A stretch of DNA of 64,000 nucleotides. Origin: Escherichia phage cardinal. Positions 48,527 through 64,000 of the stretch are shown here, in pieces. The stretch lies in the sequence record PQ567651.1; one strand, written 5' to 3'. Every line of letters starts with the position of its first letter. The stretch's first letter is position 1. The position numbers and the translations under genes are program-made. The notes beneath the pieces were generated by a model. The model saw only the letters and a list, made by a program, of their open reading frames with translations, was not told the origin of the DNA and ran no database searches.

Positions 48527-50791
48527 GTGACTCAGTATCTAAGCAAATCTATCCGTTATGTAACAAAAACAAACGGCAAGAAAGAAGAATTTAATCCAGA
48601 AAAACTTCGTAAATGGTCAGAGTTTGCTGCTGGTAAATTAAATTGGTCTGAAATTGAACTCGAAGCTGTTAAACGTTGTTACGACGGTGTGCCTACTCGT
48701 GATTTACATAAAGCTATGATAGCAGCATGTATTGATAAGAAAGATCAGGCATATAGTGATATGGCAGGTCGGTTACTTCTTGGTATGATTTATAAACAGG
48801 CTCATGGGGGATATCACAATATCCCCTCCCTCCTGGATTTCTACAATATGTCTGTAAGTAAAGGCTATTGGGGAAAAATGGATTATACAGAAGAAGAAAT
48901 TATTGAGATTGGTAAAATTGTCAATCATGATAAAAACCTAACTTATGGTTATTCCGTACTGCGCCAGATGGTTGATAAGTATCTTGTGAAAGATGCGATC
49001 AATGATGTGGTTTTTGAATCACCACAATTTTTATTCATTGGTGTAGCAATGAAGGTAATGGAAATTCAACCAAAAGATCGCAGAGTAGAAGACATTAAAC
49101 GTCTATATACCTACGTAAGTGATCTTAAGATTAATTTACCATCACCTTATTTAACAACGTTGCGTACTAAGATTAAAGGTAGTGCTTCTTGTTGTCTGTT
49201 TAGAGCAGATGATACAGCAGAATCTTTAGCAATTGCTAACTATCTTGCTCATGAATATACATTGAATAATGCAGGTATTGGTGTTAACCTCCAAACCCGT
49301 GCTACAGGACAAGGTGTTAAGAACAACCGTATCGTTCACGGTGGTCTTTTACCATATCTGAAATGGATGGAAACAAGTGTTGGAGCATCAAAACAAGCAA
49401 GCCGTGGTGGAAGTGCAACAGTAACGTTTACAATATTAGAACCTGATTTTGAAGATCTGGTACGTTTGAAAAACCCAACTACTGTTAGTGAAAAACGAGT
49501 AGATAAACTTGATTACTCTATTGTAGTAAACAATGCTTTCCTGCGCCGTGCAGCAAAAGGTAAAGATTGGATGCTAGTCAGTTATGACGAAGCACCAGAA
49601 CTCTATGAGGCGCTTTATAAAAGCGAGGAAGAGTTTGAAGAAGTATATGAAAAAGTTAGTCGCAAACGAATTAAGAAGAAGTTTGTAAAAGCACGAGATC
49701 TTCTGGCAGAAATTATTACACAAAGAGCAGAGACAGGACGTATTTATATGTTCTTTGCGGATAATGCTAATAAGCATACTCCGTTTAAGGATGTTATTTA
49801 TCAGTCCAACTTGTGCCAAGAAATTTTCTTACCTACGAAAGCATTTCACAGTATGACTGATCTTTTCACAGGTGAGAATACAGAAGACCAAGAATTGGCA
49901 TTATGCTTCCTGTCTTCTATTGTAGCTGGTCGTGTTACACCAGAAGAATATGAAGATGTTGCATATTATACCGTTCTAACTATTGATAATGTTATTGAAA
50001 CAATGCAGTATCCGTTTAAACATAACGAAATCACTGCTAAAGCACGTAGGTCTATCGGTGTAGGTATTACAAACCTGGCACATTATCTGGCAAGTAATTT
50101 TGTTACTTATTCAGATCCTTACGGCAAAAAACTAATTCACGAATTAGCAGAAAGACATTATTACTGGTTAGCAAGAGCTTCTCTTCGTTTGGCAAAAGAG
50201 AAAGGTAATGCAGAATGGATGCATAAAACCAAGTGGCCTGAAGGATGGTTGCCTATTGATACCTACGCTAAAGCTGTAGACGATATTGGCAATTTTAAAC
50301 TTAAAATGGATTGGGAAGGTTTACGACAAGATATCATTGCACAAGGTGGTATCCGAAATAGCGTATTAGCAGCTATTGCTCCAAATGAGTCCAGTAGTCT
50401 TGTAAGTAATACGACTAACTCTGTGTATCCTGTACGTGATACTATAGTTTATAAACAAAGCCAAAAGGGTAATGTTCTGTTTATTGTGCCAGACTACGAT
50501 AAACTAAAAGATATTTACCAATCGGCTTGGGATACACCAGATAAAGATATGGCTGAAGCATATGGACTGTTGACTAAATTCTTAGATCAAGGTGCATCAT
50601 GTGATAAGTGGATTGACTATTCTAAGATGGAAGGTGGTCGTTTATCCATTAAATCAGAAATGCAATATATTCTTCAGTTTGCAAAACTTGGTGGTAAATC
50701 TTTGTACTACCTAAATAGCAGAACAAAATCGGCATCCTCACTCGCTCAAGAAGATTCTGAAGACGAGGGGTGTAGCGCCTGTAAAATGTAA
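48527..50791 (+). CDS. nrdA: ribonucleotide reductase large subunit (class I)
   Basis: 754 aa; NLCQEIFLPT (class I active-site Cys-Glu region) and C-terminal CSACKM. Confidence 0.85.
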   Translation: MTQYLSKSIRYVTKTNGKKEEFNPEKLRKWSEFAAGKLNWSEIELEAVKRCYDGVPTRDLHKAMIAACIDKKDQAYSDMAGRLLLGMIYKQAHGGYHNIPSLLDFYNMSVSKGYWGKMDYTEEEIIEIGKIVNHDKNLTYGYSVLRQMVDKYLVKDAINDVVFESPQFLFIGVAMKVMEIQPKDRRVEDIKRLYTYVSDLKINLPSPYLTTLRTKIKGSASCCLFRADDTAESLAIANYLAHEYTLNNAGIGVNLQTRATGQGVKNNRIVHGGLLPYLKWMETSVGASKQASRGGSATVTFTILEPDFEDLVRLKNPTTVSEKRVDKLDYSIVVNNAFLRRAAKGKDWMLVSYDEAPELYEALYKSEEEFEEVYEKVSRKRIKKKFVKARDLLAEIITQRAETGRIYMFFADNANKHTPFKDVIYQSNLCQEIFLPTKAFHSMTDLFTGENTEDQELALCFLSSIVAGRVTPEEYEDVAYYTVLTIDNVIETMQYPFKHNEITAKARRSIGVGITNLAHYLASNFVTYSDPYGKKLIHELAERHYYWLARASLRLAKEKGNAEWMHKTKWPEGWLPIDTYAKAVDDIGNFKLKMDWEGLRQDIIAQGGIRNSVLAAIAPNESSSLVSNTTNSVYPVRDTIVYKQSQKGNVLFIVPDYDKLKDIYQSAWDTPDKDMAEAYGLLTKFLDQGASCDKWIDYSKMEGGRLSIKSEMQYILQFAKLGGKSLYYLNSRTKSASSLAQEDSEDEGCSACKM

Positions 50792-50797
50792 TGAAAC

Positions 50798-50822
50798 TAG
50801 GGGGCTTTGTCCCCCTTTCTTA
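50798..50822 (+). terminator. rho-independent terminator after nrdA
   Basis: AGGGGGCTTTGTCCCCCTTTCTT. Confidence 0.55.
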
Positions 50823-50831
50823 AGGAGGAAT

Positions 50832-51167
50832 ATGCCTACATTAGTTGTATTACCTGGAGCAACACCACAAAGACATTGGGGAAATTATACACTGGTAGAT
50901 AGTAAAGATTTTACATTCGATTGGTGTTGCCATTATATTGCAGGTTTTCAATTTTCCAGTGTTGAAATATGGGCTTCCAATGATCCAGAAGCTACCTGGT
51001 ATGCTTTAACCAGGGCAAGATATGATGGAGAGGTTACTGTACTACTCACAAAGAGTGTATGGAACGCATTAGAGAAGGCTTACATAGAGAATGGTATGGA
51101 GAGAAAACACATTGATACAATAAAAGCAATGTGTGATATTGTGGAGGATTTAAATGGCAGCGATTAA
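50832..51167 (+). CDS. hypothetical protein between nrdA and nrdB
   Basis: 111 aa. Confidence 0.4.
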   Translation: MPTLVVLPGATPQRHWGNYTLVDSKDFTFDWCCHYIAGFQFSSVEIWASNDPEATWYALTRARYDGEVTVLLTKSVWNALEKAYIENGMERKHIDTIKAMCDIVEDLNGSD

Positions 51168-52239
51168 TTTATACAACGACACTTACAAAGAAGGTTTCTA
51201 CCCTGTATTTTTGGGAGAACAGTTAGGTATTTTTGATTCTATTAACGTAACATACCCAGAAATGCATCGTCTGTACAAACTACAAAAACAGCAAGATTGG
51301 GATGAAAACGAAGTAAACTTAGATCAGACACGAAAAGATTTCGTAGCTTGTTCTAAAAGCAACTATGATGTTATGATCAAAAACCTATCCTTCCAATGGG
51401 AAAATGATTCACTTGCTAAATCAATCATCACTTTGTTTGCACCATTTTTAAGCAACAACGAAGCATGTGCAATGATGATGAAGCAATCAGAAATGGAAGT
51501 TTTACACGCTTTGACATATTCTGAAATTATTCGTCAGTGTATCCCTAATCCAAATGAAGTTATCGATCAGATTATGGAGAACGAAAGAATCTTCCAGAGG
51601 ATGGGTATAGTTGAAGAGATAATGAGTGATCTGGCAGAGGCAGGGCATAAATATGCTCTAGGTCTGATTGAGAAGGATGATAACCTTCGTCTACTGATTC
51701 TGAAAGGAATGATTGCACTTATCGGTCTGGAAGGCATTCAATTCATATCATCTTTTGCTGCAACATTTGCCTTAGCAGAGCAGCAATTGTTTGTAGGTGC
51801 AGCTAAACTCATTCAAAAAATTATGTTGGATGAACTATTGCACGTTAAAATGGATTATGCTATTATTGATGCACTGCTGAAAGATCCTGTTTGGAGAAAA
51901 GTATACGAAGACAATATCGACGTTCTGACAGAAATTCTTGACACGGTAGTTGGACAAGAGGAAGATTGGTGTGACTATCTGTTTAGTGAAGGAAGGGTTA
52001 TCGTTGGTGGTAACGCAGAGTTGTTCAAACTTTGGGTTTACTTCAATGCCGCGCCTATCTATCGCAGACTGAAAATGAAACACAAATTCCGTGCACCGAA
52101 GAAAAGTCCACTGCCTTGGATGGATGTTTGGTTAAATCCAGATCAAATTCAAGCAGCAGCACAGGAGATCCAAATTACAGCTTACAAACTGAATTCAGCA
52201 AATAAAGATGTAAGTGATGACGAGGAGTTAGACTTCTAA
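51154..52239 (+). CDS. nrdB: ribonucleotide reductase small subunit (class I)
   Basis: 361 aa; EMEVLHALTYS (iron ligands and radical Tyr), LEGIQFISSFA, LDELLHV, acidic C-terminus DDEELDF. Confidence 0.85.
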   Translation: MAAINLYNDTYKEGFYPVFLGEQLGIFDSINVTYPEMHRLYKLQKQQDWDENEVNLDQTRKDFVACSKSNYDVMIKNLSFQWENDSLAKSIITLFAPFLSNNEACAMMMKQSEMEVLHALTYSEIIRQCIPNPNEVIDQIMENERIFQRMGIVEEIMSDLAEAGHKYALGLIEKDDNLRLLILKGMIALIGLEGIQFISSFAATFALAEQQLFVGAAKLIQKIMLDELLHVKMDYAIIDALLKDPVWRKVYEDNIDVLTEILDTVVGQEEDWCDYLFSEGRVIVGGNAELFKLWVYFNAAPIYRRLKMKHKFRAPKKSPLPWMDVWLNPDQIQAAAQEIQITAYKLNSANKDVSDDEELDF

Positions 52240-52457
52240 TGAAACTACTTTGTGTTGGATTAATTTCTGACTTCAAAGACGTTTTCGAAAAGGGAGCCTC
52301 TTATGAGGCTTCCGAATTACAGAATGGTTTCTGTGATGTTTACGGCAAACGTTTAAAAAAGAATGGTGATCATTGGCTAGGAGTTATGTCTTGCGGTCAT
52401 ATTATAGTTAATGGTGTAGCCAAGTTTGAAATTATCAAAGGAGAAAAAGATGATTGA
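52239..52457 (+). CDS. hypothetical protein
   Basis: 72 aa. Confidence 0.35.
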   Translation: MKLLCVGLISDFKDVFEKGASYEASELQNGFCDVYGKRLKKNGDHWLGVMSCGHIIVNGVAKFEIIKGEKDD

Positions 52458-52632
52458 TTTTGTTGATGTAGATATTAATTCTGACTTAACAGAAGATGAA
52501 GGTGGTGCTTTTGTGTGTTCAGATGGAGAGAAATGTTTTACTCTGATGGTAGAAACTTATGATGGTATCACAGAAATTCTGTTAACAGAGAATGAGTTAA
52601 AACAGATGTTAGAAAAGATTGAGGAGCTTTAA
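52426..52632 (+). CDS. hypothetical acidic protein
   Basis: 68 aa. Confidence 0.35.
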   Translation: MKLSKEKKMIDFVDVDINSDLTEDEGGAFVCSDGEKCFTLMVETYDGITEILLTENELKQMLEKIEEL

Positions 52633-52634
52633 TA

Positions 52635-52781
52635 ATGGACGATGTAAGTATTTGTCCTATCTGCGGCGGCACTGGGAATTTTATTGTTAGTATGGAACAA
52701 TTTATTCCTTGTTGGAATTGTAACGGTTTAGGTTTCGTTCATACGGAAGAAAAAGAAGAGGAGGAAGATAATGGGAACTAA
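52635..52781 (+). CDS. small zinc-ribbon protein (48 aa)
   Basis: Not in ORF track; my translation MDDVSICPICGGTGNFIVSMEQFIPCWNCNGLGFVHTEEKEEEEDNGN has two CxxC pairs. Confidence 0.3.
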   Translation: MDDVSICPICGGTGNFIVSMEQFIPCWNCNGLGFVHTEEKEEEEDNGN

Positions 52782-53097
52782 TATTGAATGGCGTATGTTA
52801 CAGGGTGCGCCTTTTAATAAATGGGAAGAGGCTGTAGGAGAAGATCCTAGAATTGAAGAAGAATTTGATGGAGATTTTAACTGGTTCTTACAAGAAGGTC
52901 TTGATTTAAGTCGTATCTCTCCTTTCTATGACGCTGATGAATCTTACTGCATATATGGCATTTATTTAGAAGGTGGCGAAGGAAGTATAGCTGTAGATCT
53001 TGAGCAACTAAATAAGAATGCAAAAGAAGCCTATGCACAACTTCTTGAAAAATATAACATTGAAACGGAAACTATTATTTCTCAACACGTTTGGTAA
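52771..53097 (+). CDS. hypothetical acidic protein
   Basis: 108 aa. Confidence 0.4.
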   Translation: MGTNIEWRMLQGAPFNKWEEAVGEDPRIEEEFDGDFNWFLQEGLDLSRISPFYDADESYCIYGIYLEGGEGSIAVDLEQLNKNAKEAYAQLLEKYNIETETIISQHVW

Positions 53098-53110
53098 GGA
53101 GGATAGTAGA

Positions 53111-53308
53111 ATGATGCTAGATCAACTGATCAATGCTCCTCGCGTAACAGTAAGTCCAAAAACATTTGCATCACTTTTAGAAGATGCTAGAGAGGTTTAT
53201 AACTTTACTGAAGAAGAGATTCCTGTTCCTGTTGAAAAAGGTTCCAGATGGTTGTTTTATGAAGGTATTATTTTTACTGAAGGGAATAATTGGAAGGAGA
53301 CTAAATGA
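53111..53308 (+). CDS. hypothetical protein
   Basis: ATG at 53111 after GGAGGA; ORF track start 53018 overlaps the upstream gene. Confidence 0.35.
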   Translation: MMLDQLINAPRVTVSPKTFASLLEDAREVYNFTEEEIPVPVEKGSRWLFYEGIIFTEGNNWKETK

Positions 53309-54213
53309 AATACTTAGTAACAGGTGGTTTAGGCTTTATTGGAAGTGCGGTAGTTCGTTTCCTGGCTAAAAACACTAAGAATGATATTTACGTTATAGAT
53401 AAATGGAGTTACGCTTCAGACCCTAGAAATTTATCAGAAACACCTAATGTAAAGTTTTGTCGTGTTGACTTGACAAATGCTCAGTTAACTGCTAAGATTG
53501 TGGCAGATGTTAATCCAGATTATATAATGCATCTTGCAGCAGAAAGTCACGTAGATAACTCAATAGCATCACCGAGTGTTTTTATAAATTCAAATATTGT
53601 TGGAACATTTAATCTTCTAGAAGCTGTTCGTTTAATGGGAGATAAATCAAATCTTAAAATGTTTCATCATATTTCAACAGACTATGTTTTTGATGGGCAT
53701 GTTGCTGGCACAGAAGATAGTAAAACAAACCCCTTGAACACCTACGGTTACAGTAAACAATTAGGTGAAACTTTAGTACAAACAGTTTGTCCTACAGCAC
53801 TTATTATCAGAACAGCTTCTGTTTATAGTGAATTTGGACATAACTTTTTGAAAACTATGTTGGAACGCTACAACGGTGGTCAAAAAGAATTTAATGTAGT
53901 ATGTGATCATTTATCATGTCCTACTTATGCACCTGATCTTGCAGAAACAATTTTTAAACTTGTAAAAGATGGTGTAAATAGTAAAATTGTACACTATGCA
54001 GGTGCAGATTATATTTCTTGGTATGATTTTGCACGAAAGATATTTCTTGTTATAGATTTATCTGTTACAGTTAATCCTGTATCTGCTTCAACCTATAATT
54101 CCAAAGCAGTCAGACCAGCAACATCTTATTTAAGAACAGATCCTACTTTAAATCCGCGAAGTGTTGATAGCGGTATTGTAAGAGCTTTAACTATACTTTT
54201 AAACAAGGAGTGA
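53305..54213 (+). CDS. NAD(P)-dependent epimerase/reductase of the extended SDR family (RmlD-like)
   Basis: 302 aa; Rossmann VTGGLGFIGS and catalytic YGYSK (YxxxK). Confidence 0.6.
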   Translation: MKYLVTGGLGFIGSAVVRFLAKNTKNDIYVIDKWSYASDPRNLSETPNVKFCRVDLTNAQLTAKIVADVNPDYIMHLAAESHVDNSIASPSVFINSNIVGTFNLLEAVRLMGDKSNLKMFHHISTDYVFDGHVAGTEDSKTNPLNTYGYSKQLGETLVQTVCPTALIIRTASVYSEFGHNFLKTMLERYNGGQKEFNVVCDHLSCPTYAPDLAETIFKLVKDGVNSKIVHYAGADYISWYDFARKIFLVIDLSVTVNPVSASTYNSKAVRPATSYLRTDPTLNPRSVDSGIVRALTILLNKE

Positions 54214-54476
54214 AAATGAATTTTATTATCTACGGTAAACCAAATTGTCCTTTCTGCACTAACGCTAAGATTCTACTAGAACAGCGTGAACAGGATTTTA
54301 AATACCTTACCTTAGATGAAGACTATTCTTTAGATCAGATTCAGAATCTGGTTTTAGAGAAAACAGGTGTTCTACCACGCACATTTCCTCAGATTTTTGT
54401 GGAAGATGGTGAACAGCTAACCCACGTAGGAGGTTTTTCTGAACTACGTGAATTCATGGCTCAGATTGCGGAGTAA
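54210..54476 (+). CDS. glutaredoxin (NrdH/Grx-like)
   Basis: 88 aa; active site CPFC. Confidence 0.75.
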   Translation: MKMNFIIYGKPNCPFCTNAKILLEQREQDFKYLTLDEDYSLDQIQNLVLEKTGVLPRTFPQIFVEDGEQLTHVGGFSELREFMAQIAE

Positions 54477-54480
54477 CAAT

Positions 54481-54624
54481 ATGAAAGGTAAACAGAAACG
54501 TAAAATCTTTTCTCGTGCTTTGGCAACAGAGCTTAAGTCCCAAACTAAAAAGACGAAGCCTAAACGTGAAATGTCTCCTGAACACCTACTGTTTCAAGAG
54601 TTAGATCATGGGGAGGGCGACTGA
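54481..54624 (+). CDS. small basic protein (47 aa)
   Basis: Not in ORF track; my translation MKGKQKRKIFSRALATELKSQTKKTKPKREMSPEHLLFQELDHGEGD. Confidence 0.25.
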   Translation: MKGKQKRKIFSRALATELKSQTKKTKPKREMSPEHLLFQELDHGEGD

Positions 54625-54636
54625 TATAAGGAAAAC

Positions 54637-55137
54637 ATGGCTAAAGTAGTTGATGTGTTTGATATGTTACGTTTTGATGAAGGACTAAAGCTAACTGTGT
54701 ATCCTGATACCGAAGGGTATTGGACAGTTGGTATTGGACACCTTCTGACAAAACTCAAAGATAAAGCAGAAGCTATACGTATTCTTGATAACTTAGTAGG
54801 TAGAAAAACCAATGGGGTTATTACTGAAGCGGAAGCTAGAAGAATCTTTGAGAGTGACGTAAAGAAAGCGATACAACAAATCCATTCAAGTGCCATATTA
54901 TCTCCTATTTACGATAAAGTAAGTCCTAATCGTAAAATGGCTATTATTAATATGGTATTTCAAATGGGATTGAAAGGTGCAGAATCTTTCAAAAATAGCT
55001 TGACTTTAGTGAGTAATTCATATTATACTCAAGCCTCTATAAATTTACGTAAAAGTAAATGGTATCGCCAAACACCTAATCGCGCAGAGCGTGTAATTCA
55101 GGTACTTAAAACTGGAACATTAGACGCTTATAACTAA
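54637..55137 (+). CDS. endolysin (T4 lysozyme-like muramidase)
   Basis: 166 aa; DEGLKLTVYPDTEGYWTVGIGH matches the T4-lysozyme catalytic region (Glu, Asp, Thr). Confidence 0.8.
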   Translation: MAKVVDVFDMLRFDEGLKLTVYPDTEGYWTVGIGHLLTKLKDKAEAIRILDNLVGRKTNGVITEAEARRIFESDVKKAIQQIHSSAILSPIYDKVSPNRKMAIINMVFQMGLKGAESFKNSLTLVSNSYYTQASINLRKSKWYRQTPNRAERVIQVLKTGTLDAYN

Positions 55138-55139
55138 AC

Positions 55140-55163
55140 AAAGGGGCGAAAGCCCCTTTTATA
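55140..55163 (+). terminator. rho-independent terminator (same hairpin as 44403..44428)
   Basis: AAAGGGGCGAAAGCCCCTTTTAT. Confidence 0.6.
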
Positions 55164-55175
55164 AGGAGTGCAAAC

Positions 55176-55928
55176 ATGGGAAATAAAACCGCAAAGGCTC
55201 GTCGTCAATCAGCAGCCAATGATGACAAACGTGCCAGTCGTTATGCGGCTAAAGCAGTAGGAAATGATGATTACCGTCTTGATGAATTTACCCCTGTTGG
55301 GAATCAAGAAGCTATTGTAAGAAGCATGGTTTGGAATGATTTAACCATTGTTAATGCCCCAGCAGGAACAGGAAAAACGACAACAGCACTATGGAAAGCA
55401 TTGCAAATGCTTAAAGCTGGTGATTTCAGAAAGTTGATTTTCCTTAAAAACCCGACAGAAGTAGGTGATGATCAAATTGGTTTCTTATCTGGAGATAAGA
55501 CTGATAAACTAGCAGCACATTACGAATCAACTAAAAGAATTTTCCAACAGTTTATGACTGCAAATAAATTGGAAAACGATATTGCAAGTGGCAAAATTGA
55601 ACTTAATATTCCAAACTATGCACTAGGTGCTACGTGGGATAACAGCATTATTCTTATTGATGAAGTTCAACTTATGTCACCAAATACAGTAAAACTTCTC
55701 CTTGAGCGAGCAGGTCTTAATACACGTATTGTCATTATGGGTGATGTTAATCAAACATATGCAATTAAACGAAGAGCTAATGGGTTAGGTGATTTGTTAG
55801 ATCGTGTTGTTCCTATTAACGAAGAAGGAGAAAGGGAAGCTATTGTAGATTTTATTGGTTATGTTGAAATGACAACTGCTGATAACCAACGTTCCCGTTT
55901 GTCTCAGTTCATCACGGAAGTATATTAA
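55176..55928 (+). CDS. phoH: PhoH-like ATPase
   Basis: 250 aa; Walker A NAPAGTGKTTTAL and DEVQ Walker B. Confidence 0.75.
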   Translation: MGNKTAKARRQSAANDDKRASRYAAKAVGNDDYRLDEFTPVGNQEAIVRSMVWNDLTIVNAPAGTGKTTTALWKALQMLKAGDFRKLIFLKNPTEVGDDQIGFLSGDKTDKLAAHYESTKRIFQQFMTANKLENDIASGKIELNIPNYALGATWDNSIILIDEVQLMSPNTVKLLLERAGLNTRIVIMGDVNQTYAIKRRANGLGDLLDRVVPINEEGEREAIVDFIGYVEMTTADNQRSRLSQFITEVY

Positions 55929-55964
55929 TAATTACAAGGCAAGGATGCCTGTTATGGAGGTTAA

Positions 55965-56456
55965 ATGACGCTAATTGAGATTGATCGCAATGGTATTGAT
56001 GAATGCTATCAAGCTGGCTTAGTTAAGCCGAATGAGTTTAGACAGATTTATATTGACAAGATTGAAAAAGAAATATCTCTTCGTTTAGAGAACATGACAA
56101 CTTTGCAAAAAGTTCAGATGTTTTTTAGTTGGTTGAAAGGAGAGGATTGGCTAACTAAATATTACCAGGAATTATCTGATAGTCAAGAAGGCTTGTTTGA
56201 GTGTATAATAAATGTAGCTGGGTCTAATTCAGAGTTACTCCTGATTGATGAAGAAGATTCTAAACTTCTTTTTCTTAGCAGTATTTTTCACAAGAAATCT
56301 ATGTTAGTAAGAAATTGCAGTGATTTACTAAATCATCCACTAACAAGAACTAATAAAATTCTTGTGGATAAAGAAACACTAAGAGCTATTGATTACCTCC
56401 GTAAATATGTAAGCGGTGGTAAAGCAGTCCTTAAAACACTACAGGAGGAAGTATAA
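55965..56456 (+). CDS. hypothetical protein
   Basis: 163 aa. Confidence 0.4.
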   Translation: MTLIEIDRNGIDECYQAGLVKPNEFRQIYIDKIEKEISLRLENMTTLQKVQMFFSWLKGEDWLTKYYQELSDSQEGLFECIINVAGSNSELLLIDEEDSKLLFLSSIFHKKSMLVRNCSDLLNHPLTRTNKILVDKETLRAIDYLRKYVSGGKAVLKTLQEEV

Positions 56457-57109
56457 TGACAACAATTATTGCAACACGTAACAAAATTTTGTCTGACGGT
56501 AAGGTAACAGTAGGTAGTCGTGTAGACACTTTAAACTTCAAGAAAGTGCGTAAAATTGGGGACTACCTTGTTGGTGGTGCAGGACGTCTGTCTTCTATCC
56601 TGACTTTCTTTTCTTGGTTTGAACAAAACTTACAATGCCAGGCAGCACAAGAGACAATCCCAGGTTTGGTGATCCAGTCAGATCCCGATAAAGAAGATGA
56701 AGAGTTTGTGGCATTGGTTGTTCATCCAGATGGTAAAATTTATATGCACGAGGGTAATAATCCAACGCGAGCATATCCTTTAACTGAAGATTATTATGCT
56801 GTTGGTAGTGGGGCAGATTTTGCTTTAGCAGCTTTAGATGCAGGGGCAACTCCAGAAGAAGCGATGGAAGTTGCAAAACTGCGAGATGCTTTTTCCGGCG
56901 GTGAAACTTTTATCGAAGAGATCGAAGAACAACTGGAGTTAACAGCGGAAGATATTCTGAACTTCAGCAAGGAGCAACTAATTAGTATGCTGTTGACTGG
57001 TGATCCTGATAGCGATGAAGCTGAAAGTATTTTAGCAGAAATGAAAGAATCACAAGAAAAAGTATTGACAGTCTCTGAAAAACTTGATAAAGTGTCCTCT
57101 GATAATTAA
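56456..57109 (+). CDS. HslV-like N-terminal-nucleophile peptidase (proteasome beta-subunit homologue) with acidic C-terminal extension
   Basis: 217 aa; MTTIIATRNK...KKVRKIGDYLVGGAG...AVGSGADFALAALDAG aligns with E. coli HslV MTTIVSVRRN...KKVRRL...GFAGG...AIGSGGPYAQAAARAL as I remember it, including Thr2. Confidence 0.55.
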   Translation: MTTIIATRNKILSDGKVTVGSRVDTLNFKKVRKIGDYLVGGAGRLSSILTFFSWFEQNLQCQAAQETIPGLVIQSDPDKEDEEFVALVVHPDGKIYMHEGNNPTRAYPLTEDYYAVGSGADFALAALDAGATPEEAMEVAKLRDAFSGGETFIEEIEEQLELTAEDILNFSKEQLISMLLTGDPDSDEAESILAEMKESQEKVLTVSEKLDKVSSDN

Positions 57110-57117
57110 TCTAGTAT

Positions 57118-57139
57118 AAACCCCCTCAAGGGGGTTATT
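57118..57139 (+). terminator. rho-independent terminator
   Basis: AACCCCCT-CAA-GGGGGTTATT. Confidence 0.5.
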
Positions 57140-57149
57140 AGGAGGAGAT

Positions 57150-57578
57150 ATGTTACCAGTACCTGTAACCTTTGTAGAAAAAGCCTACTACTCTTTAGAA
57201 CAAAACTGTAAAAGAGCTAAAAATTTTATTGAAAGTTTAGCAGAACAGCGTTACACTGTATCTAAAAAGGGATGGTTCAGAACTTCACAATATTCAGTCA
57301 ACCCTTTCGGAGAAGTTCGTGTGTTGTACGGCAACACAGAAAATATCTTAGAAAGAATGTTAGAACTAGATAGGATCTCCTCCTGTGATTATCAACTGTT
57401 GAAATTTTACGATTTGTCAGAAAACTTTAAAAACTTTCTTGACGATTTATGTAAACGAAAAACAGAAGAAGATACAATACCAGTATCTATGGAAGAATTA
57501 ACGTTCTTAAGAGATATTATGGTTTTTGAAGAAGACCCTGAAATCACAAAAGAGGAGATTTTAAGTAGTGGCAAATAA
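57150..57578 (+). CDS. hypothetical protein
   Basis: 142 aa. Confidence 0.4.
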   Translation: MLPVPVTFVEKAYYSLEQNCKRAKNFIESLAEQRYTVSKKGWFRTSQYSVNPFGEVRVLYGNTENILERMLELDRISSCDYQLLKFYDLSENFKNFLDDLCKRKTEEDTIPVSMEELTFLRDIMVFEEDPEITKEEILSSGK

Positions 57579-58077
57579 GTATGATCGTCCACCAACTGAT
57601 TACTATCCTACTCCACAAAAATGTATAAATGCATTATTTAGTGTAATAGATTTTAATAACCTTAAAGAAGAAGGTTTTATTTTTGCAGAACCGTGTAAAG
57701 GCGCTGCTGCTGCAATTTATCAACATTTTCCAGAAGGATCAGAATATTGTGAGTTAGAAGAAGGGAAAGATTATTTTAACCACGAATGGCATACTAAGCC
57801 GGATATTATAATCACAAATCCCCCATTCAAACTTGCACTTGAGTTCTTGCAAAAGAGCTTAAAAGAAGCAGACGTTTGCATATACTTGTTGCGTCTTGGG
57901 TTCCTAGAGTCTATTAAACGAAGGGAATTCCATAAACAGAATCCACCAACAAATTTGATTGTTCTTTCTGAACGACCATCTTTTGTTGCAGGTGGTACTG
58001 ATAAGACAGCATATGCTTGGTACGTCTACGACCCAAAAAACAGGCTGGGTTTAACTCAACCTTTCTATTTTGTTTAA
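57568..58077 (+). CDS. small N6-adenine DNA methyltransferase-like protein (gamma-class motifs)
   Basis: 169 aa; DYYPTPQ...FAEPCKGAAA and IITNPPF (motif IV NPPF). Confidence 0.4.
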   Translation: MANKYDRPPTDYYPTPQKCINALFSVIDFNNLKEEGFIFAEPCKGAAAAIYQHFPEGSEYCELEEGKDYFNHEWHTKPDIIITNPPFKLALEFLQKSLKEADVCIYLLRLGFLESIKRREFHKQNPPTNLIVLSERPSFVAGGTDKTAYAWYVYDPKNRLGLTQPFYFV

Positions 58078-58321
58078 GAGGAGCATTTTTATGACCGAGA
58101 AATTTATTGTTACTATGGAACTCACCTTTGATGAAGAAGATTTTGATCTTCATGTATCAACTAAAGCAGATAACATTCACACAACACAGAGTGTTGCAAT
58201 CGCTATGTTCTTTAAACAAGCTATTGCAAAACAAGCTGAAGTATGTGCTGGTTTAGCTGTAGAGTATGCAGAAGTTGTCAAGGTTCTTGAAAGTGCTCGT
58301 AACGGCGATTGGGATGAATAG
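58070..58321 (+). CDS. hypothetical protein (frame stays open 67 codons past its TAG stop)
   Basis: 83 aa. Confidence 0.4.
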   Translation: MFKRSIFMTEKFIVTMELTFDEEDFDLHVSTKADNIHTTQSVAIAMFFKQAIAKQAEVCAGLAVEYAEVVKVLESARNGDWDE

Positions 58322-58528
58322 TGGCATACAATTACTATCTGGTATATTTTTAACGAAACTAAGAAAAAAGACACAGGAACTAATGTTTATGCGGAATCCG
58401 AAGAACACGCAAAAGCTATTGGTTCAGTGCTTCTTTCTAGAATAGCAGGTGAAGAAATTCCTGTAGAGGCTATCTTTGCAGAAGTTGACCCTAGTATTCA
58501 AGAGGATGGTATTACCACTACTTAACTG

Positions 58529-58557
58529 TTGACTTTAACATTAAGGTAGTGCATACT
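58529..58557 (+). promoter_or_regulatory. sigma70-like promoter TTGACT-N17-CATACT (weak -10)
   Basis: Read directly; followed by hairpin CCTGT-AACAGA-ACAGG whose 3' arm overlaps the SD AGGAGGG of the recombinase gene. Confidence 0.35.
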
Positions 58558-58582
58558 TCCTGTAACAGAACAGGAGGGTATT

Positions 58583-59245
58583 ATGAAGTTTGTACTATAT
58601 CATCGACTTTCTAAGAAGAAACAACAAGGCAACCAGTATGGTATAGAATCACAGGAAGCAGATATTCAACGCTTCCTGGATTCACAAGAAAATTATACTA
58701 TTGTAGGTAGCTTTGCAGAGTTTTATTCGGGTAAAGGCGATTGGAAGCAACGTAGAGAGCTTGTAAAAGCTGTTAATCTTTGCAAAGAAACAGGTGCTAC
58801 ACTTGTTGTTGCTAAGGTTGACCGTCTTGGACGTAACACAGCTTCTGTTGCAACCTTGTTAGAGATGATCAATGTACGAATAGCAACTATGCCCTCCGCT
58901 GAAAATATGATAATAAATATTTTAGCAGTTCTGGCAGAAGAAGAGGCTCGTGCAATATCTGATCGTGTTAAGAAGAGCCTTAAGGTAGCAAAAGCGAAGG
59001 GAACGCTTCTTGGTGCAGCAAACCCTAAATACAAAAGAACAGATTATAAGAAAACGGAAGAAGCAAAACGCTCAAGAGAGTTTGCGCTTTCTTTAAAAGA
59101 TTCTTTAGTTGCATACAGAGCTTGTAAAACGCCATATATGACGATTGCAAAGCATCTGAATGAATCAGGAAAGAGAACTATTCGTGGGAGTTTGTTCGAT
59201 GCCAAAGCGGTACAACGTCTTTGTGCAAAATTGAATATTAAATAA
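58583..59245 (+). CDS. serine recombinase (resolvase/invertase family)
   Basis: 220 aa; LYHRLSKKKQ (catalytic Ser region), VVAKVDRLGRN, C-terminal HTH. Confidence 0.7.
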   Translation: MKFVLYHRLSKKKQQGNQYGIESQEADIQRFLDSQENYTIVGSFAEFYSGKGDWKQRRELVKAVNLCKETGATLVVAKVDRLGRNTASVATLLEMINVRIATMPSAENMIINILAVLAEEEARAISDRVKKSLKVAKAKGTLLGAANPKYKRTDYKKTEEAKRSREFALSLKDSLVAYRACKTPYMTIAKHLNESGKRTIRGSLFDAKAVQRLCAKLNIK

Positions 59246-59254
59246 GGAGGAAAC

Positions 59255-59458
59255 ATGGCAGTTCAATCTTTTGAGGAGACTGTTAAAAAACAATTCCTAT
59301 CGAAGCGAGCGATGGTTGAATTTTTGCATTTTCTCGAAGTAGATAGGGTACTTATTGAGACTACACCAGATGGTAACTGGCAAGTCTCGTATATTGCCAC
59401 CAGGCATATCGTAGACAGTACGAAAGAAGAAAGTTCGGAAGTTACGGTTGCTAGTTAA
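59255..59458 (+). CDS. hypothetical protein
   Basis: 67 aa. Confidence 0.35.
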   Translation: MAVQSFEETVKKQFLSKRAMVEFLHFLEVDRVLIETTPDGNWQVSYIATRHIVDSTKEESSEVTVAS

Positions 59459-59469
59459 AGGAGTTAAGT

Positions 59470-60042
59470 ATGCGTTTAGCTTTTAACGGGAAGATAAGCA
59501 CAGCAAACATATTATCAGCCATAGGATTATTAGGTAAAAAATTCACACCTTTCAGTTTACCTGTTTGTGTAGATTTTGATCATGTATTTGATATTAATAA
59601 TCCTTCACGTTGTATCGCCAGAAGTAATATTGATAACCCAAGTGAAAATCTGTTTTATATTACTAAACCATCCCAGGCAATTTTGAATCAATGGGAAGCA
59701 GGTCTGATTAAACCAGGTAAATATTTTGCATTACTACCTTGTAAATCATTGGCTATAGAGGACAGTCTAAACTATGCAAACAATCTTGTTGTTACAGCAT
59801 TCATTGTCTCAGAAAAAGAAGAAACTGCGGCACTTGCAAACACTGTTAAATCTTTGTATGATGCTTTGGGTGTTACTTACACTACCTTCGTTTGTGAAGA
59901 TATTCCACATTGCGTTGAATTCGTGGTGAATGGTGTAACTGTATGTCGTGTAGAAACAACTCAAGACGAAGACGTTTTTATTACTGTAGCCGATGTAATA
60001 TCTGAACCTGTGTTTAGTTATGCAGTTTCATTAACACATTAA
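59470..60042 (+). CDS. hypothetical protein
   Basis: 190 aa. Confidence 0.4.
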   Translation: MRLAFNGKISTANILSAIGLLGKKFTPFSLPVCVDFDHVFDINNPSRCIARSNIDNPSENLFYITKPSQAILNQWEAGLIKPGKYFALLPCKSLAIEDSLNYANNLVVTAFIVSEKEETAALANTVKSLYDALGVTYTTFVCEDIPHCVEFVVNGVTVCRVETTQDEDVFITVADVISEPVFSYAVSLTH

Positions 60043-60052
60043 GGAGAAGGGG

Positions 60053-60379
60053 ATGAAAATAACGACAGAACAGGCTTTAATAGACAAAGGAAGGGAAATC
60101 TTAGAAAGTCATTTGGAGGATATTCAAAGGACTCCAGGGTATCTCGGCTGGCGTATACAAGAAGCCGTCGATTTTCTACCCCGTAAAAATAAAGAGATTG
60201 AAGTAAGATCTCTATTCCTCCTTGTTAAAGTAGATGGTGACGCTATATACAAAGATGTAGCGTCTCACATTGAACAAATAGAAGAAAAAGCCTACAAAGA
60301 ATTTGCAGATCTTGTTGTAGAACATAATATAGAAGGTAAAGTTAATATCTTTATACTTATGGATTTTGAGGAGAGTTGA
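60053..60379 (+). CDS. hypothetical protein
   Basis: 108 aa. Confidence 0.4.
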   Translation: MKITTEQALIDKGREILESHLEDIQRTPGYLGWRIQEAVDFLPRKNKEIEVRSLFLLVKVDGDAIYKDVASHIEQIEEKAYKEFADLVVEHNIEGKVNIFILMDFEES

Positions 60380-61121
60380 TGCTAGTATATCAAGAAATTA
60401 GTGTAAAAGATGATCAAGACCTGTTTATTATTGGTGATTTACATGGTTGCTTTGATTGTACCAGAAAGGTGTTAATACTTTAGGTATCCGAGATCAAGAT
60501 GTTGTTGTATCTTTAGGAGATCTTACAGATCGCGGCAAGCAGAATTTTCGTTGTGTTGTTGAATTCACCAGAAAGCTAAATCGTTATGGTATTCGTGGAA
60601 ACCATGAAGATATGATGATTAAAGGGTTGCTAGAAGGTGATAGACGATATTACGAATGTTGGTTTCAGAACGGAGGCCATACAGTTCTAGACGAGTGTGG
60701 AGAAGAGGGTGCAACTGCTCTTGCTTCGATGCTAGAAGATTTACCTGTTGTACTTGTTGTCAATTATCGTAATATGAAACTAGGCTTTATTCACGGTGGG
60801 TATCCTTCAGTTTTGGAACATTTGCCAATAACAGAAGTTTTGCCATTTTGTTTGAATATGAATAAAGAGCAAGTTTCTCGATTCACAGAATCTTTAATGT
60901 GGGATCGTGATATGATAGATTGCGCACTTGAAGGGATTCTTCTTCCTAGAGTTTCAGGAGTAGATTATGTATTTCACGGGCATTCTTATGTTCCTAAACC
61001 TGTGATTAGCAGTAATAGGGTATATATGGACACAGGATCTTGCTTCAATGGTAATTTAACCTTTGCATATTTTGATGATTCAAATACGTTACAATTTTAT
61101 TCTACTTTAGAGGAGGACTAA
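60379..61121 (+). pseudogene. Ser/Thr protein phosphatase (lambda PPase-like metallophosphatase) split by a frameshift near 60453-60483
   Basis: Frame 1 from ATG 60379 gives MLVYQEISVKDDQDLFIIGDLHGCFDCTRKVLIL* (GDxHG motif); the -1 frame continues ...YQKGVNTLGIRDQDVVVSLGDLTDRG...GIRGNHE... (GDxxDRG and GNHE motifs). Confidence 0.55.
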
Positions 61122-61441
61122 TGTATAAAATCACAATTAAAGAAACAGTAGGAGAACTTACGAAAGAAACTACTATTGAGACGGAAGATGTTGAGTTAGT
61201 CAAAGAGCTTTTATTTCCAAAACCAGAAATAAAAGATAATGATGAACAGTTGGATGAAGATAATGAGACAGCAAGGGATAAATGGAAGAAACAACTAGCG
61301 GAGATTTGGAAAAAGCCTGAAGTAACTCCTCCATTTGATCCTCGTAGACCTTATAATCCTTGGGAAATTGGAAGCCCTTGGTTTACGTACCCTATTACTC
61401 CAATTGTTAATCCAATTGTTACTCCCAATATTACTTGTTAA
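61121..61441 (+). CDS. hypothetical protein with Pro-rich C-terminus
   Basis: 106 aa. Confidence 0.4.
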   Translation: MYKITIKETVGELTKETTIETEDVELVKELLFPKPEIKDNDEQLDEDNETARDKWKKQLAEIWKKPEVTPPFDPRRPYNPWEIGSPWFTYPITPIVNPIVTPNITC

Positions 61442-61451
61442 GGAGAAAACC

Positions 61452-62030
61452 ATGAGCGATTTATTCTACACAGGTGTTGGTAGCAGAGATATTACAGACG
61501 AAGAATGGGATACTATGGTATCTGTTGCAAAATGGCTATCTACATGGTTCATTTTGCGATCTGGTAAAGCAGAAGGTGCAGATTCCGCATTTGAATGCGG
61601 GGTATATGATAGTGGGAACAATACAAAGAAAGAAATATACATCCCTTGGCTCTCGTTTAAAGGTAATGAAATAGAGGGAGAGGTTATTGTTCTTGACAGA
61701 CCAGATAGTGTAAACTATGCTCTAACCTTGCAATATGCAAAAGAATTGCATCCAGCTTGGGACAGATTATCTCAAGGTGCTAAAAAATTACATCAAAGAA
61801 ATATCCACCAAGTTCTTGGAAGAGACCTTGAGAATCCAAAACCATCTTGTTTTCTTTTAGCTTGTGCAAATACAGATAAAAATGGAGATCCTTTAGGTGG
61901 TACAAGAACAGCTTGGATGTTGGCTAAAAAGTTTAATGTCCCTTGTTTTAATATTCGAGGTAAAAGTAAAAAACAAATTTTCGAATTTATTAAGCCTATT
62001 TTAGAGGAGAATGGTCTTGTCCAGAAATAA
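61452..62030 (+). CDS. DprA/Smf-like Rossmann-fold (SLOG-type) protein, tentative
   Basis: ATG at 61452 after AAGGAG; YTGVGSRD...RSGKAEGADSAFECG resembles the DprA VGTR...SGxAxGIDxAAH pattern. Confidence 0.35.
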   Translation: MSDLFYTGVGSRDITDEEWDTMVSVAKWLSTWFILRSGKAEGADSAFECGVYDSGNNTKKEIYIPWLSFKGNEIEGEVIVLDRPDSVNYALTLQYAKELHPAWDRLSQGAKKLHQRNIHQVLGRDLENPKPSCFLLACANTDKNGDPLGGTRTAWMLAKKFNVPCFNIRGKSKKQIFEFIKPILEENGLVQK

Positions 62031-62535
62031 TATAAGCGTCATTAAAGATAGTTTTATTGATGTAACAAACGATATTGTACCTACAATACAATATATAGTT
62101 GAGGCACAAGGTTTAAACTTTATACGTGATAAAGTTAAGATTGTTTTTCATAACACTCCAGGTTTTGTAACAGTAGGTTCAACAAAAACGCCGTGCTCTA
62201 CAGATCTGATTACTTTAGACAAAAACTTAACACAAGAAGAAGTAGAAATTCTTAACCTCTATTGGCTAGGTTTTAAAAGATATGAGGATACAGCTTTATC
62301 CCGAATGTCAACTATTTTAGCTAACATTCTGGTTCGGAAAATTTCTAAACTATGGGATGAAGAAAACCCAGATGAAATAGTTTTACACTTTGCTAAACCG
62401 GAAGACGGGGCATATGATATAGACACATCTGAAATGGCTTATGGGTTTATTATTTCTGGTAATGTATTACAGATGGAATCTTTATTGTATGTTGAGACAG
62501 TAAAACACAATAACAATTACGAGGAGGTTGTATGA
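62011..62535 (+). CDS. hypothetical protein
   Basis: 174 aa. Confidence 0.4.
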   Translation: MVLSRNNISVIKDSFIDVTNDIVPTIQYIVEAQGLNFIRDKVKIVFHNTPGFVTVGSTKTPCSTDLITLDKNLTQEEVEILNLYWLGFKRYEDTALSRMSTILANILVRKISKLWDEENPDEIVLHFAKPEDGAYDIDTSEMAYGFIISGNVLQMESLLYVETVKHNNNYEEVV

Positions 62536-62789
62536 AAGGTTTAGAGTTTAACTTTGTAGATGCGTGGGAAGGATGGGATGAACTAGGAGTAGGGGATTTA
62601 TGTTTTTATGATGTTACCTTGAAGGAAGAATACAAACATCTAGCTCCTAGTGAAGATTGCGATGTGATTCTAACTATCCTATTAAGTCAGTCTATAGTGC
62701 AATTTGATTTTCTAAAAGGTAGTGAGTGTATTGAAAGTAAAGCATTCCGTTTAGAAGTTTCTCTTGGTGAAGAAGTTCCTGTAGAATAA
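62532..62789 (+). CDS. hypothetical protein
   Basis: 85 aa. Confidence 0.4.
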   Translation: MKGLEFNFVDAWEGWDELGVGDLCFYDVTLKEEYKHLAPSEDCDVILTILLSQSIVQFDFLKGSECIESKAFRLEVSLGEEVPVE

Positions 62790-62792
62790 TAT

Positions 62793-62816
62793 AAACCCGC
62801 TTCGGCGGGTTTTTTG
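62793..62816 (+). terminator. rho-independent terminator
   Basis: AAACCCGC-TTCG-GCGGGTTTTTTG. Confidence 0.65.
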
Positions 62817-62845
62817 TTGACAACACCAGTTTTTTCGAATAAACT
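62817..62845 (+). promoter_or_regulatory. sigma70-like promoter TTGACA-N17-TAAACT
   Basis: Immediately after the terminator; then AGAGGAG and ATG at 62872. Confidence 0.4.
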
Positions 62846-62871
62846 ACAGAAAAACAGAAGAGGAGTTTAGC

Positions 62872-63282
62872 ATGTATTATAGTGATTATTTTGTAAACCC
62901 AACAAAAGAACAACTTCAATCAGCAGTGGATAAGATGCAGATTGTAGTTAAAGAATGTGAAAAAATAAGAAAACAACTACAAGAAGAGACTGTTGTTGTT
63001 AATAAATGGTTTGGTCTTAGGAAGAAAGTTGTTAGTAAACACAATATCATCCTTGAAAAAGCAAAAACGACAGGAACTAGTTACGCCTTACAAGCCTTGT
63101 TACTAAATTACATTGATATAGAACAACATTCTCTTCTGCACTGTTGGCTTAACAGTCCTGGTATTGAGGATCTCTTGTTCTGGTTATCGTGTGAATCTGT
63201 ACTTTTAAATGAGAATGAGGCTTACCGTTTAAACTTCTGCCTCAAGGCAGAATTACCAGCTAGTGTTAAGGAGAAGAAGTAA
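62872..63282 (+). CDS. hypothetical protein
   Basis: 136 aa. Confidence 0.4.
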   Translation: MYYSDYFVNPTKEQLQSAVDKMQIVVKECEKIRKQLQEETVVVNKWFGLRKKVVSKHNIILEKAKTTGTSYALQALLLNYIDIEQHSLLHCWLNSPGIEDLLFWLSCESVLLNENEAYRLNFCLKAELPASVKEKK

Positions 63283-63284
63283 TA

Positions 63285-64000
63285 ATGAAAGTTTTAAGTC
63301 TTTTTGATGGTATGTCAGGAGGAATGCTTGCGCTAAAAAGTGCAGGTATTGAAGTAGATACATATTATGCTTCAGAATTAGACAAATTCGCCATAGCTGA
63401 AAGCCAAGCAAATTTTCCAGATATTATTCAGTTAGGTGATGTTACAAAATGGAGAGAATGGGATATCCCGTGGGGAGAAATTGATCTTTTGTTAGGTGGT
63501 AGTCCGTGTCAAGGCTTCTCTTCTTCTGGTAAGGGTTTGAACTTTCAAGATCCGCGATCTAAGCTATTCTTCGAATATGTTGAGATTCTTGAACATATTA
63601 AAAAGTTTAACCCTAATGTTAAGTTCATGCTTGAAAACGTTAAGATGAAAGTGGAGTGGGAAAACGTGATCACAAGTTACTTAGGTGTTGATCCCGTATT
63701 CATTAACTCCGCAGATTTCACGGCACAGAATAGACAACGTTTATACTGGTGCAACTGGGAAATAAAGCCTTGGGATATTACCAATGCAGTGCTGCAAGAT
63801 ATCATTGAAGATGATAGTATTGTAGACAGAGATAAGGCTTATTGCATAGATGCAAATTATGCCAAAGGTGGTAATATAGAACAGTATTTTGAAAAGAGTC
63901 GCAGACAACTGGTTTTTTATCCGGCAGCAATATATGGGCGTAGAATTAATGAAAATGGCAAACGTAGTACATCTAAAACTGATCGTTTGGTACATTGTTT
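63285..64000 (+). CDS. DNA (cytosine-5)-methyltransferase, partial (runs off window end)
   Basis: My translation from ATG 63285 gives MKVLSLFDGMSGGMLAL (motif I), GGSPCQGFS (motif IV, PCQ), ENV (motif VI). Confidence 0.7.
   Translation, partial: MKVLSLFDGMSGGMLALKSAGIEVDTYYASELDKFAIAESQANFPDIIQLGDVTKWREWDIPWGEIDLLLGGSPCQGFSSSGKGLNFQDPRSKLFFEYVEILEHIKKFNPNVKFMLENVKMKVEWENVITSYLGVDPVFINSADFTAQNRQRLYWCNWEIKPWDITNAVLQDIIEDDSIVDRDKAYCIDANYAKGGNIEQYFEKSRRQLVFYPAAIYGRRINENGKRSTSKTDRLVHC

Follow-up and report, generated by a model that had tools for sequence, protein, structure and literature searches.

The gene for a lambda-type serine/threonine phosphatase in Escherichia phage cardinal (sequence record PQ567651.1) is written in two reading frames, and a first-pass annotation of this DNA had left three options for it: the enzyme is inactivated, it is made by frameshifting, or the assembly carries a one-base indel. 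We asked which of these applies, using the whole 64,000-nt stretch that was analysed (the window), in which the phosphatase locus is read on the plus strand. Sequence comparison places the phage among the phi92-like myoviruses (Stephanstirmvirinae, Justusliebigvirus) and identifies the split gene as the orthologue of phi92 gp049, which encodes a NinI-like Ser/Thr phosphatase of 247 aa.

Layout of the split gene

The locus comprises the following features:
60369..60373, plus strand: Shine-Dalgarno sequence AGGAG, read from the sequence; the phi92 annotation has a ribosome-binding site and CDS start at the equivalent positions
60379..60483, plus strand: 5' fragment of the phosphatase gene, frame 1, 34 codons and TAG (60481-60483)
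60454..60458, plus strand: lesion, one T of a T3 run missing (GATTG against GATTTG), from the alignment with KMB37, phi92, muut and PHB05
60456..61121, plus strand: 3' fragment of the phosphatase gene, -1 frame, 221 codons and TAA (61119-61121)

The start codon, ATG 60379-60381, overlaps by one base the TGA of the upstream gp050 homologue, and translation from it reads MLVYQEISVKDDQDLFIIGDLHGCFD, then CTRKVLIL, then TAG, so that the 34-aa product ends ...GDLHGCFDCTRKVLIL*. Delimited from 60376 or 60379 to 60483 (plus strand, frame 1), the ORF is M(M)LVYQEISVKDDQDLFIIGDLHGCFD, then CTRKVLIL, then TAG, exactly as in the first-pass reading, in which frame 1 stops eight codons past GDLHGCFD. The only metal-binding motif in this fragment is motif I, GDLHG (60433-60447), and its final eight codons, CTRKVLIL, are out of frame. 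The -1 frame has a TGA at 60453-60455 and is open from 60456 onward; the 221-codon ORF, which a gene caller has annotated, opens at a TTG that lies 25 nt ahead of the first ORF's stop codon, and inspection of the sequence found no Shine-Dalgarno sequence upstream of this TTG. It contains GDLTDRG (60516-60536), GNHE (60597-60608) and the histidine motifs HGG and GHS. The gene is thus divided between motifs I and II, with GDLHG in the 34-aa piece and the rest, GDLTDRG and GNHE included, in the 221 codons of the -1 frame open from 60456 to 61121, as had been claimed on both points. The two frames overlap by 28 nt (60456-60483), (GA)T TGT ACC AGA AAG GTG TTA ATA CTT TAG. Downstream, the start of the gp048 homologue overlaps the phosphatase stop (TAATG, 61119-61123) and has a strong GGAGG of its own. 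To judge from the relatives, in which the same DNA is a continuous 744-nt CDS one T apart, the split pattern is not due to chance.

When the missing T is restored, the 247-aa protein matches Pfam Metallophos PF00149 with 51.8 bits (cut-off 21.5), PHROG 246 'NinI-like serine-threonine phosphatase' with 1.2e-75, and lambda phosphatase 1G5B with E = 1.1e-29 (residues 3-230 against 3-214), every motif being aligned. GDLHG of the window is placed on GDLHG of 1G5B, GDLTDRG and GNHE on GDLVDRG and GNHE, and the histidine motifs 'fiHGGyp' and 'fhGHsy' on 'icHADyp' and 'ifGHtp', respectively; we take the downstream histidine ligands to be the equivalents of lambda His139 and His186. The likeness to lambda phosphatase with the expected motif spacing, noticed at first from the letters alone, is borne out by this alignment, in which the homology is unambiguous. 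By itself, the 221-aa fragment covers only profile positions 30-190 of Pfam Metallophos and keeps motifs II-V. All sequence features of the family are present except that the motifs do not stand on one uninterrupted polypeptide, the split lying after codon 26. By descent, the gene belongs to the lambda NinI-type members of the PPP family; as written, it is a pseudogene.

The lesion is confined to this isolate

Phage records in GenBank that match the 1.39 kb around the site number 55, with 96.5-99.6% DNA identity in the 40 listed, and over its last 25 kb the window is 98.5-98.8% identical to the best 12 records. In these relatives the locus is a single 744-nt CDS of 247 aa, annotated as serine/threonine protein phosphatase or NinI-like. 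The lesion falls on codons 26-27 (Asp-Leu) of the intact gene. Across the 173 aligned columns at the site, GATTG against GATTTG is the only difference between the window and four relatives, and all 55 GenBank records span 87 bases around the lesion for 86 bases of query and so carry the extra T. A called 247-aa Metallophos gene was found at each of 20 places in ENA, Logan and NCBI assemblies that share the exact neighbouring proteins, and the 22 distinct metagenome and SRA contigs (duplicates removed, aligned) all read TTT and have the gene intact. No hit was obtained in IMG/VR, JGI metagenomes or GTDB genomes for an exact 30-mer across the deletion; a search of IMG/VR for more relatives added only two further close ones. 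Comparison with orthologues, a check proposed in the first-pass annotation, has thus found the gene intact in every relative examined, that is, in 55 GenBank phages and 22 contigs, and the lesion in none of them. Among the 22 contigs, 39 synonymous and 17 non-synonymous variant codons (crude omega ~0.12) indicate purifying selection. The comparison points to an ordinary event, an isolate-specific broken copy of a known, annotated accessory gene.

Four of the public records, MG065639, MG065645, MG065656 and MG065689, are labelled 'Campylobacter phage' (host C. jejuni) and are 97.6% identical across the locus, which suggests that they are mislabelled or contaminant sequences in a public collection.

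Other private lesions in the same genome

The window carries two further unique lesions, and private base changes are found in the same region:
53305..54213, plus strand: in-frame chimera of RmlB (N-terminal) and RmlD (C-terminal), 302 aa, from alignment blocks
58321..58525, plus strand: broken homologue of phi92 gp054 (67 aa, PHROG 15892), from comparison with relatives
58321, 58347 and 58509, plus strand: private variants in the gp054 homologue, from the alignment with 22 relatives
60455, 60727 (L117S), 60828 and 60830 (together V151I), plus strand: private variants in the phosphatase gene, from the same alignment

In the gp054 homologue, a T4 run has become T5 (58347-58351), so that a TAA stop follows codon 10; the start codon has changed from ATG to GTG at 58321, and a private A to G at 58509 replaces Asp by Gly near the C-terminus. 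The T4 run is kept in 55 of 55 GenBank records and the gene is intact in all 22 contigs. The chimera arose from a 2.3-kb deletion at a 14-nt identity, CATATTTCAACAGA (53668-53681), which joined the paralogous SDR genes rmlB and rmlD at their common ISTD motif and removed rmlA and rmlC; no GenBank relative spans this junction. With rmlA and rmlC removed and rmlB fused to rmlD, the dTDP-rhamnose pathway of the phage is gone.

When the whole window is compared with inny and KMB37, the phosphatase gene and the gp054 homologue each hold one private coding indel that breaks the frame, and no other gene was found to have one; the remaining indels are in tRNA or intergenic sequence or net multiples of 3. 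Terminase with its intron aside, these two short-run frameshifts mark the only genes found interrupted in the 64 kb, by a screen that is blind to genes deleted outright or matching at <85% identity; the rml deletion came from the alignment blocks.

Other differences from the comparators were also recorded. The large terminase gene has an insert of ~975 nt (23213-24188, minus strand) between codons 414 and 415, which scores 47 bits against the group I intron model RF00028 (gathering score 50; E = 1.9e-10) and contains an ORF (23377-24057) for a 226-aa HNH homing endonuclease (PHROG 59, 3.4e-49). Since the insert is present in 8 of 57 GenBank records (e.g. nepoznato, UAB_1 and PD114; absent from inny and KMB37), it is a known mobile element. 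At 26757-26849, ~93 unalignable bases stand in the place of ~380 nt in inny (L006, 6275-6654) and KMB37 (L008, 6555-6932), where an 89-aa hypothetical gene (inny_87) is annotated, and this small accessory gene is missing or replaced in the window. Small indels against both comparators lie at 28769, 28896-28905, 29481-29493 and 30085, in the tRNA-gene cluster and intergenic sequence; they are two shortened runs (C4 to C3 and T5 to T4) and the absence of an AT and of a C.

Between 57100 and 63300, nine variants of the window are seen in none of the 22 relatives, and seven of the nine lie in the two frameshifted genes; short searches showed the private variants to be absent from all 55 GenBank records as well. 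Frameshifts aside, the two broken genes, which make up 15-17% of the sequence, hold five of the seven private substitutions (binomial p 0.0013-0.0024, or 0.006-0.010 if the pair in codon 151 is one event; Fisher 0.003-0.012, for 7 events of which two are in one codon). The private changes of the relatives themselves fall in these two genes in 31 of 179 cases, matching their share of the length. Such clustering, in small counts, would be expected for genes drifting after inactivation and would not be expected from read error; L117S and V151I alone are too few to show relaxed constraint.

Mutation or sequencing error

Among ~15 billion proteins, the 34-aa product and the 221-aa product each have a single exact match, and both matches are on the Logan contig SRR33749226_1 (63,127 nt), which is 100% identical to positions 50456-64000 of the window (13.5 kb), both frameshifts included. 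Its ends differ from those of the window: it runs on for ~15 kb past the window end and stops ~16 kb short of the window start. This contig is a separate assembly, probably of the same sample; a literature search found no paper citing SRR33749226. An intact 247-aa protein with the private substitutions of the window was not found in the same collection of ~15 billion proteins.

If the missing T were a homopolymer miscall in the consensus, the true phage would have TTT and an intact 247-aa phosphatase. The change is indeed one of T-run length, and 2.1 kb away a conserved gene is broken by another private change of this kind (T4 to T5), both being singletons among >75 relatives; moreover, the only other source of the allele is a single SRA run, possibly the data of the window itself, and a systematic miscall would appear in both assemblies if window and contig came from the same reads. 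Against this stands the same sequence in a contig with different boundaries, from a different assembly. The private 2.3-kb deletion in the same genome cannot be a base-calling artefact, and error gives no reason for private substitutions to gather in just the two genes that are frameshifted. The window assembly is otherwise clean: it contains no N, and window-private length changes are absent from all 71 of its homopolymer runs of at least 6 bases. The argument from run length is weak, as long runs are favoured by natural slippage as well as by sequencing error. A generally error-ridden assembly was considered separately and ruled out by the count of only two frame-breaking private coding indels against inny and KMB37. 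Altogether we judge a consensus error to be unlikely, though with a share of the probability that deserves to be kept in mind. Because of the second assembly, the co-occurring private lesions and the clustered private substitutions, we infer instead, on indirect grounds, that the lesion is probably a real mutation, which inactivates an accessory gene that the phage can do without.

Recoding and independent translation

In principle, the split gene could still yield a full-length enzyme, through -1 ribosomal frameshifting within the 28-nt overlap or through transcriptional slippage; restoration of the frame would need a -1 slip between 60456 and 60480. The overlap contains a single -1 shift-prone motif:
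60465..60468, plus strand: A_AAG tetramer

This tetramer is the most shift-prone one in E. coli (PMC4066793) and stands in the right frame inside the overlap, where a slip (of tRNA-Lys) would give 247 aa that are three residues off the wild type (CTR for LYQ) and contain the junction peptide FDCTRKGVNTLG. However, in the measurements of Sharma et al. 2014 (PMC4066793), tetramers that lacked a stimulator frameshifted at background level (~0.15% against a background of 0.11%), and it took a strong pseudoknot to bring A_AAG to a few per cent. The overlap (60456-60483) has no X_XXY_YYZ heptamer, no AGGAG-like sequence is present in 60445-60462, and the predicted fold of the 72 nt 60469-60540 is as weak as that of shuffled sequences (-13.2 kcal/mol against -12.85, z = -0.15). 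Transcriptional slippage needs T or A runs much longer than the 2-3 bases present here. The two-frame arrangement is found in 0 of 55 GenBank relatives and 0 of 22 distinct contigs. Relatives whose gene requires no frameshift have the very same flanking sequence, so no part of the site has evolved to serve recoding. Programmed -1 frameshifting was rejected, with heptamer, upstream Shine-Dalgarno sequence, downstream structure and conservation all negative. We therefore hold any recoding to full length to be very improbable; slippage at A_AAG could yield at most a trace of 247-aa protein with CTR for LYQ. That the 221-aa ORF is translated alone, from TTG 60456 or by reinitiation after TAG 60481, and is active by itself or with the 34-aa peptide, is scarcely credible even though it is open from a TTG 25 nt before the first stop, is annotated by a gene caller and keeps motifs II-V, as there is no Shine-Dalgarno sequence before the TTG, GDLHG is placed by the alignment in the 34-aa piece, and such a split gene occurs in no relative examined.

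Among the three options of the first-pass annotation, inactivation is accordingly favoured, by the second assembly and the private lesions, frameshifting is effectively excluded, and error retains a minor part of the probability.

Consequences of a loss of the phosphatase

In the loss of function that we favour, one T has gone from a T3 run (GATTTG to GATTG) in the orthologue of phi92 gp049, a lambda NinI-type Mn-dependent Ser/Thr/Tyr phosphatase. Translation from the normal start therefore ends at 34 residues, with motif I only, and the other 221 codons, which specify the remaining metal and phosphate ligands, lie in the -1 frame without a ribosome-binding site of their own. The lesion, its uniqueness and the intact gene of the relatives are observed; that the mutation is real, that it leaves no active enzyme and that the phage tolerates it is inferred from them. 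In lambda phosphatase and the PPP family, catalysis depends on the Asp and His of GDxHG, which are metal ligands. Because the 221-aa ORF lacks both a ribosome-binding site and this Asp and His, no active enzyme would be expected beyond background slippage. That the loss is tolerated, the phosphatase being a dispensable accessory function, is plausible by analogy, because neither lambda ninI nor P1 ppp is essential for plaque formation (PMC10695390). The losses of gp054 and of the dTDP-rhamnose cluster fit a lineage that is shedding accessory genes. For the gp048 homologue, translational coupling would be lost and ~640 nt of untranslated mRNA would lie ahead of it, so that a mild polar effect is possible.

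It might be argued that the loss was adaptive and not neutral, given that three accessory functions (phosphatase, gp054 and the dTDP-rhamnose genes) have been privately inactivated, perhaps under host-specific selection; we consider this improbable. Such an adaptation could consist, e.g., in evading a defence system that detects one of the proteins or requires it or, alternatively, in dropping functions that burden the phage on a laboratory strain, and it would give the phosphatase of phi92-like phages its first link to a phenotype.

The importance of the lesion beyond annotation is small. The two ORFs should be entered together as a single frameshifted pseudogene, the orthologue of phi92 gp049, rather than as separate genes or as a recoding site, and the isolate should count as a natural variant that is null for the phosphatase, gp054 and rml. 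If reads confirm the mutation, the phage would be a ready-made knockout for the role of the NinI-like phosphatase, which is widely conserved, in Justusliebigvirus infection, with near-identical intact relatives such as KMB37 as partners for comparison.

Comparison with known systems

Overlapping 0 and -1 ORFs with A_AAG in the overlap are also found in programmed -1 frameshift genes of phages and IS elements, such as dnaX, the lambda G/GT tail chaperone gene and IS3/IS911. In contrast to these, the window has neither heptamer nor stimulator, its split is not conserved, and its upstream ORF is a 34-aa stub rather than a functional product. With lambda NinI (ORF221; 1G5B), to which it is homologous over the full length, the phi92-type protein shares GDLHG, GDLxDRG, GNHE and the two histidine motifs in the same order and spacing; the similarity is moderate, with an insertion of ~15 residues near 145-165 and a longer C-terminus in the phi92-type protein, and the gene lies here in an early-gene block of a large virulent myovirus, whereas that of lambda lies in the nin region of a lambdoid phage. 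The closest counterparts are phi92 gp049 (YP_009012380.1) and its Justusliebigvirus orthologues (KMB37, inny, arall, VEcB, EmilieFrey and others), which are likewise flanked at this position by the gp050 and gp048 homologues, have ribosome-binding site, start and stop as in the window, and are >98% identical to the repaired window protein. From these the window differs by one T fewer at codons 26/27, which turns a single 247-aa ORF into ORFs of 34 and 221 aa, and by the private changes L117S and V151I.
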